Of a DNA stretch of 18,983 nt, positions 1 to 13,209 are shown piece after piece. Location: NCBI GenBank assembly GCA_031372065.1, contig JANMKN010000202.1:1-18983 (forward strand). Reading direction: 5' to 3'. The notes beneath the pieces are model-generated. The model did not search any database. It saw nothing but the letters and a program-made list of their open reading frames with translations, and had not been told where the DNA came from. How positions within the stretch are numbered: position 1 is the stretch's first letter; each line of letters starts with the position of its first letter. The position numbers and the translations under genes were made by a program. This DNA is from Abditibacteriaceae bacterium (lineage in GTDB: Bacteria; Armatimonadota; Abditibacteriia; Abditibacteriales; Abditibacteriaceae).

Positions 1-452
1 TGGGAATTCCTTCGTCAGGCCGATTGGTTTCGTCTACAGGTCTTTCACCTTCTATGGATCATCGTTCCAGAAAGATTCGACTACCGCTCGGTATGGTAAC
101 TGACTGACTGGTCTTGCACACAGTCCAAAGGCTCCCGCAACACCGATTACACATCGCTGCAAGGCTATGCCATGTAATCGGTTTAGGCTGTTCCCGTTTC
201 GCTCGCCACTACTCAGGGAATCGCATTCGCTTTCTTCTCCTCCGCTTACTTAGATGTTTCAGTTCAGCGGCTTACCTCTACCCTTACTATATATTCATAA
301 GGGAGTTCCATGACTGGTCATGGAGGGTTGCCCCATTCGGAAATCTCTGGATCAAAGCCTGCTTACGGCTCCCCAAAGCTTATCGTCGTTTGCTACGTCC
401 TTCATCGGCTCCAAGTGCCAAGGCATCCACCGTGCGCCCTTCCTAACTTGAC
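1..452 (-). rRNA. rrl: 23S rRNA, 5' portion (runs off window start)
   Basis: The reverse complement begins GTCAAGTTAGGAAGGGCGCACGGTGGATGCCTTGGCAC...GATGAAGGACGT...TTTCCGAATGGGGCAACCC...GAACTGAAACATCTAAGTA...TTCCCTGAGTAGTGGCGAGCGAAA. These are conserved 23S domain I motifs. The mature 5' end is approximate. Confidence 0.97.
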
Positions 453-524
453 TACGCAAAAGTCTGCAATCACTTGCAGGTTTCACAATCTACGTCTTTG
501 CGCTTCTTAAAGAACACACATTCA

Positions 525-10706: not shown

Positions 10707-12413
10707 GTGAACGGAATTGTCGACCCCGATGCCCCATCAGACGCCATAACACTGGCTTCCATAGACAAAATCGAAAAACGGCGCCTGCGCTGGTTGATGG
10801 TCATTTTTCTATTAATCGCCACCGTGCCCTATTTGTGGGCCGCTGCCATCACACCGCCCGGCTTCGTTTATAGCGGCTTGCTTTTCAGTCCCGACGACCA
10901 AAATGTGCATCTGATGTGGGCGCGCCAAGCCGCCGAAGGCCATTTTTTCGTGCAGGATTTGTTCACCACCGAGCATCTCACTACGGGAGAAAAACCGCTT
11001 TTTAACAACCTACTGACAACATTGATCGGCGCGCTTTCTTGGCCGCTTTTTTCGCTGATAATTTCTTACCATGCGCTTCGCATGGCGGCGGGCGCCCTAT
11101 GCTTATGGTGTTTTTATGGCTTGGCCGCGCAATTAACTTCCGACAAGCGAATCCGTTTTTTCGCCACCGTTTTGGCCGCCTTTTCATCGGGCGGCGGCTG
11201 GCTGCGCGATGTGTTGCCTTTTTGGGTCAATCGTGCTTGGATAGACCGGCCCGACAACACCAATTTTCCTATGATGCCGGAAGGGTTTGCCTCTCCGTCG
11301 CTTTTTATTTTTCCGCTCAACGCGGCATCGTTGGCGTTGTTAGCCCTGATTTATCACTGCGTTTTGCGCGCGCAAAACGGCGAAAAAAGCGCCTTAAAAA
11401 TTGGTTTTGTCGCTGCGTTTCTGCTTTCCAATATTCACACTTACGATGCGTTACCTTTAGGCGCGACTTTACTGCTTTGGGCACTTTTTTGCGGCTTAAA
11501 AGAGAAAAAATTGGCCTTCGCGCCGCTAATTATCGCTTCCGGCACACTGTTGCCGCTGATTTATCAGGTTTATGTGTTCAAAAACAGCAGCGAATTTAAA
11601 TTAAAGGCGATAACGGTCACCGCGCCGCCACCTTTGCCCGATGTTTTGCTGTCTTACACCCCGCTTTTGCTTTTGGCGCTCTATGGCGCGTGGACAATGC
11701 GACAAAATCAATCAGCACGTTTGCTCGTGCTTTGGGCACTTGTCACCCTTGTTTCGATTTACGCGCCGCTTTCCTTTGGCCGTAAAATGATCGAAGGCTT
11801 TCATTTGCCGCTTTGCTTTTTTGCCGCAGTAGCGGTTTTTGCATTGCTGAAAAACCGCACGCCCATTTTGCAACGCACTTTTGCCGCGTTTTGCGGCCTG
11901 CTATTGTGCCTTTCGTCGTTGCAATTTGTCGCTTGGTGCTTGGCTGATGCGCCCAAAAGCATCGTGCCCTATCGCGGCAATATGCCGCCGCTTTATTTAT
12001 CGGTTTTCGACGACCAAGTGCTATTTGATTTAAACAAGCAATATCAAAAAGACAAAGCCCTAAATAAGCCACCCAGTGCGGTATTGAGTTTGTATTTTGT
12101 CGGCAATTACATTCCGCAAAAAACCGGCTATCATGCCTTTTTAGGCCATTGGGCCGAAACTTTGGAATTCAAGCGCAAATCCGCCGAGGTTCACGCATTT
12201 TATCAAGGACGAATGCCGCGCGCCGAAGCATTGGAATGGCTGCATAAAAATCACATTCGCTATGTGTTTTTTGGTTTTTATGAGGCGCATTTATTTTCGT
12301 CAAACCAGCCGCTACACGATTTGTTGGGCAAGTCAATTATCTATCGTGGCCCAAACGAAATGGAATCTTCTAACAATCCCTCAGCTGTAGTGTTTGAAGT
12401 GCCCGACAAATAA
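10707..12413 (+). CDS. Polytopic membrane protein, probable GT-C fold glycosyltransferase-like
   Basis: About 11-13 hydrophobic segments, a DD motif after TM1 (SPDDQNVH), and a C-terminal periplasmic domain (…LHKNHIRYVFFG). Start is GTG 10707 or ATG 10698; the ORF-track start at 10524 overlaps the divergent gene. Confidence 0.65.
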   Translation: MNGIVDPDAPSDAITLASIDKIEKRRLRWLMVIFLLIATVPYLWAAAITPPGFVYSGLLFSPDDQNVHLMWARQAAEGHFFVQDLFTTEHLTTGEKPLFNNLLTTLIGALSWPLFSLIISYHALRMAAGALCLWCFYGLAAQLTSDKRIRFFATVLAAFSSGGGWLRDVLPFWVNRAWIDRPDNTNFPMMPEGFASPSLFIFPLNAASLALLALIYHCVLRAQNGEKSALKIGFVAAFLLSNIHTYDALPLGATLLLWALFCGLKEKKLAFAPLIIASGTLLPLIYQVYVFKNSSEFKLKAITVTAPPPLPDVLLSYTPLLLLALYGAWTMRQNQSARLLVLWALVTLVSIYAPLSFGRKMIEGFHLPLCFFAAVAVFALLKNRTPILQRTFAAFCGLLLCLSSLQFVAWCLADAPKSIVPYRGNMPPLYLSVFDDQVLFDLNKQYQKDKALNKPPSAVLSLYFVGNYIPQKTGYHAFLGHWAETLEFKRKSAEVHAFYQGRMPRAEALEWLHKNHIRYVFFGFYEAHLFSSNQPLHDLLGKSIIYRGPNEMESSNNPSAVVFEVPDK

Positions 12414-12454
12414 AAAAAGCCAGCGCGAAATCTGATTTCGCGCTGGCTTTTTTT
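12412..12454. terminator. Bidirectional intrinsic terminator between the membrane protein gene and the tRNA
   Basis: A7-GCCAGCGCGAAATC-T-GATTTCGCGCTGGC-T7, a perfect inverted repeat. Confidence 0.9.
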
Positions 12455-12504
12455 ATTTTTGCAGTAGGCCGAGAGGGATTTGAACCCCCAACCAAGGCAT
12501 TATG

Positions 12505-13088
12505 CTTACCACTACAACTTTCGTTGCCTTTCGTTTGTGGTCTGGACTATCTCTTCTCTTTACGAGTCTCCCGTTTAGTCTCTGCACCTTCCATTTCTGG
12601 CTTGGCTCAGGATTACCATATCTTTCGATTTAGGCTTCCCTGAATTTGAGAGATTCTATCTCAGAACTCAACATTATGAACCGTGTCATAATCTGCGATT
12701 CCAAGACAACCCATTCAAAGGACTATATGAACTGTTCTGTCTGCGGGACGCCTCTTAAAGGCAAACAAACCAAATACTGCTCGAAGCAATGTAAGTTTAA
12801 ATCTGACAACAACCGAAATCAGAATTATACAAAGCAACAAGAACGAGGCCGTAAAAGAAAACTCTCTTTGATAGAGGCGGCGGGTGGTAAGTGCTGCCTT
12901 TGTGGTTATTGTAAAAACCCCAATGCTTTATCCTTCCACCACTTAGACCCAGCCAAAAAGAATTTCAATTTGGACATCAGAAGCTGCTCTAATAAAACCG
13001 TTGACAGTTTGAAAAAAGAAGCCTCTCAATGTATTTTGGTGTGCTTAAATTGTCATGCAGAAATTCACAGCGATAATCCTCCCTCTTG
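12505..13088 (-). mobile_element. Group I self-splicing intron (IC3-like), 584 nt, in the tRNA anticodon loop
   Basis: Minus-strand core motifs: P AAATTCAGGGAA (12647-12636), Q AATCCTGAGC (12614-12605), R GTGCAGAGACTAAA (12587-12574), S AAGAGATAGTCC (12555-12544). P4 TTCAGG/CCTGAG, P7 GACTA/TAGTC, P3 TCTCTC/GGGAGA. The 5' exon ends in U and the intron ends in G (12505). Confidence 0.93.
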
Positions 13089-13089
13089 A
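12727..13089 (+). CDS. HNH endonuclease, putative intron-encoded homing endonuclease, antisense to the intron
   Basis: AAAGGA RBS before ATG 12727 (120 aa). N-terminal CSVCG…KYCSKQC zinc finger; C-terminal CCLCGY…LSFHHLDP…CILVCLNCHAEIH HNH/zinc module. Basic, and visibly more AT-rich than its neighbours. Confidence 0.88.
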   Translation: MNCSVCGTPLKGKQTKYCSKQCKFKSDNNRNQNYTKQQERGRKRKLSLIEAAGGKCCLCGYCKNPNALSFHHLDPAKKNFNLDIRSCSNKTVDSLKKEASQCILVCLNCHAEIHSDNPPS

Positions 13090-13134
13090 GTGCCCTGCTC
13101 TAACCCTTGAGCTATCGGCCCCTTAGCGCCAATT

Positions 13135-13143
13135 ATTCTACCA
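13135..13143 (-). promoter_or_regulatory. Extended -10 promoter for the tRNA
   Basis: The minus strand reads TGG TAGAAT (TGn + -10), 13 nt upstream of the tRNA 5' end. Confidence 0.6.
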
Positions 13144-13158
13144 AACAAAGAAGCGAAC

Positions 13159-13209
13159 GGCAGGATGCTCGATGCTCGATAGTGAAAATCCTGCATCCTG
13201 CCTCCCGAT
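13159..13209. repeat. Heptamer repeat hairpin between the sigma gene and the tRNA
   Basis: GGCAGGA TGCTCGA TGCTCGA … TCCTGCA TCCTGCC TCCCGA. Confidence 0.6.

Follow-up and report, generated by a model that had tools for sequence, protein, structure and literature searches.

The intron in the tRNA-fMet gene of Synechocystis PCC 6803 encodes the endonuclease I-Ssp6803I; the gene is located in P1 and overlaps P1/P2 (PMC3073962), and a title in the reference list of that source describes the enzyme as specific for the anticodon region. A preprint that sorts bacterial tRNA introns into 21 classes, and states that introns longer than about 400 bp may contain genes, places this intron in class fMet.2Ug; it assigns the classical tRNA introns to subgroup IC3 (Williams 2020, bioRxiv 10.1101/2020.01.27.920355). 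In Didymium iridis, the gene for I-DirII is antisense to the group I intron Dir.S956-2 and has its own promoter (PMC3073962, PMC3679873). Two enzymes of phage T4 are described in PMC2988022. For I-TevI, the enzyme's promoter, which lies inside the intron, is overlapped by a homing-site copy that works as an operator. SegB is a free-standing homing endonuclease of the tRNA cluster, and its target is listed as a tRNA intergenic region.

The locus described here lies in a stretch of 18,983 nucleotides (the window) from an Abditibacteriaceae genome, G000, which is 94% complete. It holds a tRNA(CAU) gene split by a group I intron, with an HNH endonuclease gene on the opposite strand of the intron. 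The locus is probably a composite selfish element, made up of a group I intron in tRNA-Ile2(CAU) and an HNH homing endonuclease that mobilises the intron and may well repress itself. Its features are as follows; G002 is a genome of the same genus.

12411 to 12455, both strands: two-way terminator-like hairpin between the tRNA gene and a convergent membrane-protein gene (terminator search; U tract on the minus strand)
12465 to 12504, minus strand: tRNA exon 2, C34 to the discriminator base (in-silico splicing)
12505 to 13088, minus strand: group I intron of 584 nt between U33 and C34, ending in G (Rfam and in-silico splicing)
12525 to 12658, minus strand: ribozyme core (Rfam RF00028; 145 of 148 bases over 12505-12652 identical to G002)
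12659 to 12706, minus strand: P2, with 12706-12699 paired to 12666-12659, extended by the palindrome hairpin (folding)
12673 to 12692, no strand: palindrome ATTATGA-N6-TCATAAT, inverted copies of the anticodon loop; proposed operator, and distal P2 hairpin in the RNA
12684 to 12692, plus strand: candidate -10 CATAAT preceded by TG, in the right arm of the palindrome (sequence)
12709 to 12713, minus strand: internal guide sequence, the 3' strand of P1 (folding; the motif recurs among homologous loci)
12717 to 12722, plus strand: ribosome-binding site (RBS) AAAGGA, kept in G002; its opposite strand is part of the 3' strand of the P1 extension (12717-12726)
12727 to 13089, plus strand: gene for a 120-aa HNH endonuclease, in the P1 loop and antisense to the intron (ORF, profile matches, model and dN/dS)
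13073 to 13082, minus strand: 5' strand of the P1 extension, paired with 12726-12717 (probability 0.82)
13087 to 13091, minus strand: 5' strand of P1, the last three exon bases and first two intron bases, paired with 12713-12709 (mean probability 0.73)
13089 to 13121, minus strand: tRNA exon 1, G1 to U33 (in-silico splicing; 33 of 33 bases identical in G002)
13135 to 13140, minus strand: TAGAAT hexamer, candidate -10 for the promoter of the tRNA itself (sequence)

A first-pass annotation, made from the sequence alone, had placed the tRNA and intron on the minus strand and the HNH ORF on the plus strand. The Rfam core and in-silico splicing agree with this, and the ORF (12727-13089), RBS, candidate -10, inverted repeat and TGA all lie where they had been reported. 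Two other features lie elsewhere in the window. Between the sigma-factor gene and the tRNA promoter, 13159-13202 forms an inverted repeat of 10 bp whose minus-strand tail is T-rich; it is likely to be a terminator. Positions 1-453 (minus strand), at the contig end, are the 5' part of a 23S rRNA gene with 17- and 25-nt insertions relative to the Rfam consensus.

Rfam RF00028 matches the minus strand at 12525-12739 with 67.3 bits (gathering score 50). ARAGORN without the intron option calls no tRNA in the whole window. When the exons are joined in silico after T 13089 and before 12504, the product is a tRNA whose anticodon is CAT, and the U(-1)/omega-G rule is satisfied; the splice site was set by this rule and not by ARAGORN alone, because alternative cut pairs also fold as tRNAs. 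The intron of 584 nt thus runs from 13088 to 12505 on the minus strand, between U33 and C34, with its terminal G at 12505. Its likeness to the classical tRNA introns suggests subgroup IC3, and it is very likely to be self-splicing. Hexamers resembling TAGAAT are also found upstream of the tRNA in G001, G002 and G024.

There are three CAU tRNAs among 66 ARAGORN calls in G000. By identity rules, the two others are presumably the initiator and elongator Met tRNAs; the split tRNA has C4:G69 and C5:G68, presumably an Ile2 mark. No Ile(TAT) tRNA is found among the 66 calls, and tilS is present above its profile cut-off. The split tRNA is probably of the Ile2 (lysidine) type and reads AUA. Since the other CAU tRNAs appear to be Met types, Ile(TAT) is missing from the calls and tilS is present, it is probably the sole AUA reader of G000, and therefore has to be spliced.

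RNA data were small shares (0.07-0.15) of three runs, in the form of strandless assembled contigs of other organisms, none spanning the locus. One contig skips the 584 nt; its flanks are foreign and its source may be an intron-less relative. In a 151-nt contig of another organism (run X3, record 10; window 12498-12711), the intron 3' end and seven exon-like bases are joined to guide sequence. This joint is either an intron circle or a template-switch artefact. The idea that the nuclease gene was inserted into an anticodon-loop copy at the intron's 5' terminus arose from one RNA contig joint; it was rejected, as the 15-nt pattern gave 34 viral matches and 0 of 34 had an intron core.

The anatomy of the pre-tRNA was taken from computed RNA folding with pair probabilities. 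In the predicted P1, U33 pairs with G, as is required of the U(-1)-G pair. The P1 extension (10 bp) closes over the HNH ORF in the predicted fold, and its 5' strand overlaps the final codons of the gene on the opposite strand. The RBS falls inside the P1 extension and the candidate -10 inside P2. All 15 P2 pairs are kept between G000 and G002, with two one-sided changes and one two-sided change; this is a comparison of two sequences, too few for statistical support.

The HNH protein contains the Cys and His motifs previously picked out by eye: C3, C6, C18 and C22; C56 and C59; H71 and H72; and C106, C109 and H110. Six of these residues (H72, H110, C56, C59, C106 and C109) are invariant across 69 aligned rows and are presumably the catalytic His, the metal-binding His and the zinc cysteines. 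At the position aligned with the Asn of the McrA HNH motif, homologs have Lys and the window's protein has Gln; N89 and N108, at other positions, are conserved. The Pfam HNH profile (PF01844) matches with E 7.7e-4 and 20 bits, under the cut-off of 21.4, while PHROGs HNH families match with E down to 2.5e-19. Relative to G002 the ORF has 23 synonymous and 21 non-synonymous changes (dN/dS 0.18, p 1.9e-7), a ratio which resembles those of uvrA (0.15) and the neighbouring sigma gene (0.18). Sequence comparison therefore indicates a real gene under purifying selection.

The model of the 120-aa protein (pLDDT 87, pTM 0.67) consists of an N-terminal four-Cys finger, a 25-residue helix (27-51) and an HNH-type domain. 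A sequence search of the PDB gave no match under E 0.18, and fold searches with the model gave nothing at E 0.001; the top fold-search rows are HNH nucleases at E 0.15 or worse, with a best Z of 4.0 (rmsd 3.7, 63 aligned). A homodimer model scores 0.53, versus 0.00 for the best of three controls, with pLDDT of at least 86; the runs show 100% contact agreement, and the interface is formed by residues 61-67 and 106-115. This mark is attained by 20 of 30 solved homodimers versus 1 of 23 single-chain proteins, and passing it may reflect likeness to solved HNH dimers. The prediction supports a homodimer. A two-fold dimer with the nuclease domains in the centre would fit a two-fold site with a fixed spacer.

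Homologs were taken from three scans, as the best 80 of 551, 493 and 524 confirmed matches respectively; these are samples, not a census. Close homologs are the 65 distinct proteins among the listed matches with 100 bits or more, the window's included. Of these, 38 lie antisense in 33/34 introns of tRNA(CAU), which bears out the link to tRNA introns on which the first-pass annotation depended; the carriers listed are Acidobacteriota, Chloroflexota, Patescibacteria, Armatimonadota, Krumholzibacteriota and one viral contig. In Bacteroidota and kin, three of the 65 occupy the sense strand of 36/37 introns. Six, from Gammaproteobacteria, stand free in divergent orientation to a tRNA(CAU) whose 36/37 intron has no ORF (two of the six were assigned from 5' exons). 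Another stands free next to a 33/34 intron that likewise lacks an ORF, and the other 17 are otherwise free.

Some of these layouts have features of their own. The sense-strand HNH genes in after-36 introns at L065, L066, L068, L070 and L071 start at most a few dozen bases from the splice site. At the gammaproteobacterial loci L040, L046, L047, L048, L056 and L057, the free HNH gene is head to head with a tRNA(CAU) that has an ORF-less intron after 36; this arrangement is possibly collaborative homing. At L036 (637-1242, minus strand), a tRNA(CAU) intron of 1307 nt contains both an antisense HNH gene and a sense LAGLIDADG_2 gene (Pfam E 6.8e-36). Several distant homologs among the matches listed (L073-L105, L209-L262) are in or beside tRNA-Asn(GTT) 35/36 and tRNA-Thr(TGT) 33/34 introns, mainly in Patescibacteria; the listed ones inside these introns are on the sense strand.

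Free-standing members beside tRNA(CAU) are found mostly in phages. An intact tRNA(CAU) lies within 250 nt of 14 of the 17 otherwise-free close homologs listed. At the listed loci, 15 of 28 adjacent tRNAs are CAU versus 1 of 24 farther ones (p 1.6e-4; the loci are related to one another, so p-values overstate). Weaker homologs (85-100 bits) are near tRNA(CAU) in 6 of 22 listed cases, which is not significant. The enzyme had been expected to cut intron-less tRNA(CAU) alleles, and the close free homologs likewise point to the tRNA(CAU) gene as the likely target. A quick tree of the proteins, with 12 of 85 branches starred and 41 open (L057 and L065, of 90 distinct proteins, were dropped by the length filter), was not used for the order of events.

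Among 41 genomes searched, 21 have matches to some part of the locus. The complete element is present in G002, 91% identical. In G024 the same site is occupied by another intron; the core is about 68% alike and the antisense homolog is 52% identical to that of G000. G014 has a sister of the G024 intron in which the gene has been lost by in-frame deletion, leaving a METVFST-stop relic behind the RBS. At this locus (L003, 1425-1480), the P1 loop of the ORF-less intron retains the RBS, the start and the last HNH codons, fused in frame. Intron-less alleles are found at 16 loci in the bacterial family, and G001 and G003 have the same flanking genes as the window. Full, nuclease-deleted and empty alleles are thus held by relatives within one bacterial family, as expected of a homing cycle. 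The position of the gene in the P1 loop, together with empty alleles in relatives, is the pattern that marks an intron-encoded homing endonuclease. Homing by cutting of the empty CAU gene is quite likely; the CAU neighbours of homologs and the broken tRNA genes described below are indirect indications of it.

The stem GGGCA is present in 4 of 4 intron-bearing versus 2 of 16 intron-less genomes, a comparison that includes only two intron lineages. In a sample of the phylum, the core is found in 7 of 401 genomes; the three of these outside the bacterial family are ORF-less introns at the same site, judged by eye. Comparison of G000 with G002 (dS 0.42 versus 0.68 and 0.90, over 120 codons) does not demonstrate lateral transfer. 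In G002 (L002), the intron-bearing tRNA has neighbours unlike those in G000, G001 and G003, and the sigma gene is on another contig. Free-standing cassettes at L061, L119, L123, L201, L114, L116, L196, L124, L127 and L200 are flanked by orphan tRNA halves, some with a replacement tRNA(CAU). Orphan halves at about ten phage cassettes, in a few related groups, break between positions 26 and 33-35; automated pairing of the halves recovered 1 of 15 loci, and these breakpoints rest on reading by eye.

A mechanism in four steps can be proposed. Firstly, the minus-strand pre-tRNA would be made and the ribozyme would excise itself, with the antisense of the nuclease gene looped out via P1; AUA decoding would be kept. 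Secondly, the nuclease needs its own plus-strand promoter because the tRNA precursor is no message; it would be expressed from a promoter in P2 and the RBS in the P1 extension. Thirdly, the homodimer would recognise the DNA encoding the anticodon loop in tRNA(CAU) genes that lack the intron. Its cut would fall within the 5' strand of the anticodon stem, immediately ahead of the insertion site; repair would copy the intron in and thereby split the recognition site. Finally, the dimer would occupy the inverted pair of anticodon-loop copies that covers the -10 of its gene and would repress that gene, which would keep both the nuclease level and antisense traffic over the tRNA low.

The separate antisense promoter proposed in the first-pass annotation is well supported by sequence across the family. 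Among the listed antisense loci having an ATG, 21 of 37 have a TAnnnT hexamer 5-8 nt before it, versus 3.8 expected; several antisense loci also have a good -35 (e.g. TTGACA-17-TATCAT in L036). This arrangement, which is mostly that of one clade, predicts leaderless messages. G000 and G002 have the other promoter type, with a hexamer 34 nt upstream plus an RBS. No -35/-10 pair is found upstream of the HNH ATG at the window locus, and the candidate promoter, which at this locus alone does not stand out from chance, scores p 0.26 against shuffles (p 0.43 in G002). An extended -10, TG-T-CATAAT, had been put forward here. It is present and the position of the hexamer is kept in the sister genome G002, but G002 has TATAAT without the TG; the extended -10 was consequently rejected as a conserved signal. 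Expression of the HNH gene in antisense from a promoter of its own is likely.

The arms of the inverted repeat, ATTATGA at 12673-12679 and TCATAAT at 12686-12692, cover the candidate -10, as previously reported. What had been missed is that, across the family, the repeat copies the anticodon loop, at intron-less sites too: TCATAA is the DNA of tRNA positions 33-38. No other match to the repeat occurs in the window, where 0.01 would be expected by chance (3 of 200 shuffles), and the exact TTATGA-N6-TCATAA occurs once in the 6.1-Mb G000 genome. The search for palindromes at other loci allowed up to one mismatch and a spacer of 2 to 11 within 110 nt of the start. Among the matches listed, 16 of 38 free-standing homologs have a palindrome in this range, compared with 4 of 39 antisense-intron loci, 0 of 12 other intron-linked loci and 10 of 140 distant homologs. 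Control windows have it in 28 of 3760 cases. The spacer is 6 in 26 of 30 matches at the listed loci. In the leaderless clade its place is taken by one C[AG]TAT box that lies between -35 and -10 (at 17 of 21 hand-picked loci versus 84 of 3743 windows); its recurrence may be due to shared descent.

The motif also follows the neighbouring tRNA. Outside CAU introns, it accompanies CAU or UAU neighbours at 18 of 50 listed loci versus 7 of 128. The palindrome matches the actual loop of the neighbouring tRNA at 19 of 118 listed loci, versus 8.7 with neighbours shuffled (0 of 2000 shuffles reached 19). Without the CAU/UAU loci, this becomes 4 of 65 versus 1.3 (p 0.02; two of the four share one motif). 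When loops are assumed, palindromes for Arg(TCT) are found in 2 of 17 versus 0 of 212 cases, both with the same motif, and there is no signal for Asn (1 of 51), Thr (0 of 26), Leu (0 of 14) or Ile(TAT) (0 of 21). Covariation of the palindrome with other anticodons is weak in these data.

The tRNA gene itself has a single TCATAA half-site; the position of the second half-site matches at 2 of 6 bases, and the palindrome spacer, when laid on the tRNA gene, covers positions 27-32. TCATAA occurs 2313 times in the G000 genome; this frequency and the single half-site weigh against the proposed mechanism. When the test is reversed and starts from the palindrome, a family member turns up at 1 of 120 listed loci if the spacer is 6 and at 0 of 120 listed loci if it is 9; chance matches dominate. 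As with I-TevI, a target-like sequence overlaps the candidate promoter of the HNH gene. Autorepression by the nuclease at the palindrome is a somewhat favoured reading of these sequences.

The main alternative keeps the same homing element and dispenses with self-repression; the repeat would be merely P2 RNA structure, a relic of a phage cassette or the site of another regulator. This is possible, although doubtful. In the pre-tRNA fold the two arms form the distal hairpin of P2, with a pairing probability of 0.96. The arms in G002 are TTATAA, one base off the CAU loop, and this single difference preserves the pairing. In addition, the palindrome is missing from 35 of 39 listed intron-borne homologs. 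Against this alternative, the sequence with its 6-nt spacer is also found upstream of 16 of 38 listed free-standing homologs which have no intron; these fall on many separate branches of the tree. The arm sequence is conserved and the spacer variable among palindromes, which suits a protein site rather than a hairpin, and the homodimer model suits a two-fold site.

A second alternative extends the suggestion, made from the sequence, that the antisense transcript may disturb synthesis or splicing of the tRNA and that the base at the insertion site is needed for correct termination. The transcript would then have a measurable effect on the tRNA, and termination would be tied to the insertion site as a checkpoint. 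The candidate tRNA and antisense promoters do converge, about 440 nt apart, and no T-tailed terminator is found on the plus strand after the HNH stop. The TGA at 13087-13089 is indeed made of two intron bases and the complement of tRNA U33 (13089). In the 39 distinct antisense loci among the matches listed (duplicates L026, L045 and L189 omitted), 14 ORFs stop exactly at U33 (11 TGA, 3 TAA), 14 stop earlier and 11 run beyond it, extending 14-55 nt into the antisense of the exon. A functional dependence on the insertion-site base is not upheld, and the stop codon was rejected as an insertion checkpoint: 25 of the 39 listed homologs end elsewhere, and read-through of the TGA in the window would add 7 codons.

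Introns start with CA or TA at 28 of 39 listed antisense loci and in 5 of 5 ORF-less introns examined (G014, L063, L268, L270 and L271). U33 is near-universal in tRNAs and doubles as the splice-site U. An intron start of CA or TA next to U33 therefore gives an antisense stop in any frame, whether or not there is a gene. The overlap of stop and U33 is real and, from these sequences, appears incidental, a by-product of how such introns begin. An effect of the antisense transcript on the tRNA, with termination as a checkpoint, is improbable.

It is more improbable still that the protein acts on the tRNA, as an anticodon nuclease or addiction toxin, or aids splicing, and is found beside tRNA(CAU) for this reason. 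In favour of this, an intact tRNA(CAU) gene adjoins 14 of 17 listed free copies, and a DNase directed at that gene might be expected to cut it. However, all sequence matches and the best fold matches are to HNH-type nucleases, and several phage cassettes are flanked by broken tRNA genes. The G014 intron, which has lost the gene, keeps a strong core of 76.6 bits; the protein is dispensable for splicing there, because the gene is lost while the core stays strong. Least probable of all is that the ORF is a silent, decaying passenger, since the weak promoter score at the window locus is set against a dN/dS of 0.18, 24 of 44 ORF differences from G002 at third codon positions and the retention of every invariant residue of the family.

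If the composite selfish element is generalised to its homologs, there would be a new family of dimeric HNH homing endonucleases of about 120 aa directed against tRNA anticodon arms, carried in a mobile, self-repressing cassette. The cassette would have homes in phage tRNA arrays, beside intron-bearing tRNAs and, in either orientation, in the P1 loop of two tRNA(CAU) introns; its operator would spell the target half-site, and the window would keep this operator recast as ribozyme P2. Taken as a single joint claim, this stands at about even chances. No description of the layout or the palindrome was found in the accessible literature; most subscription papers were beyond reach, and the Nakagawa 2025 preprint on Patescibacteria may treat intron ORFs.

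The consequences would be several. The specificity of a nuclease could be read from its upstream DNA, and a site-specific nuclease of 120 residues with a readable half-site would be practically useful. One short stretch of DNA would act as ribozyme helix, promoter, operator and RBS. The family would offer a mechanism for the spread of Ile2 introns between phyla. As free, neighbouring, intron-borne and deleted states of one gene are available, the origin of mobile introns would become directly testable. The family would have been overlooked because the split gene escapes tRNA finders and the ORF is on the opposite strand. I-Ssp6803I is the only endonuclease of a bacterial tRNA intron met in the accessible literature; the HNH family would add another, widespread and not related to it.

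In the scheme of Williams 2020, the window's intron would be Ile2.2Ug; the classical Ile2 intron, the Azoarcus-type Ile2.5Ug, lies after position 36, whereas this one is at 33/34. The locus shares with that of I-Ssp6803I a bacterial chromosomal tRNA(CAU) intron, the same loop position and an endonuclease gene in P1. The two differ in enzyme and host: I-Ssp6803I is a PD-(D/E)XK enzyme in an fMet tRNA, while the window's enzyme is HNH-type in an Ile2-type tRNA. The gene for I-Ssp6803I is on the sense strand of its intron. I-DirII provides the parallel for a homing gene that runs antisense to its group I intron within a gene for non-coding RNA, but it is found in eukaryotic nuclear rDNA, with a polymerase II promoter and a spliceosomal intron; the window's element is in a bacterial tRNA, with candidate sigma-70-type signals inside P1 and P2.

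I-TevI resembles the window's gene in having a target-like copy over its own promoter (here a candidate promoter). It is a GIY-YIG enzyme with one direct copy (15 of 20 nt), in contrast to the two inverted half-sites of 6-7 nt and the predicted dimer in the window. SegB, free-standing in a tRNA cluster, resembles the phage members of the HNH family; it is also GIY-YIG and has an intergenic target, whereas the HNH family is apparently aimed at the anticodon arm and occurs inside introns as well. The HNH element is thus like I-Ssp6803I in its niche, like I-DirII in its orientation and like I-TevI in its proposed control, and is a member of none of these systems.
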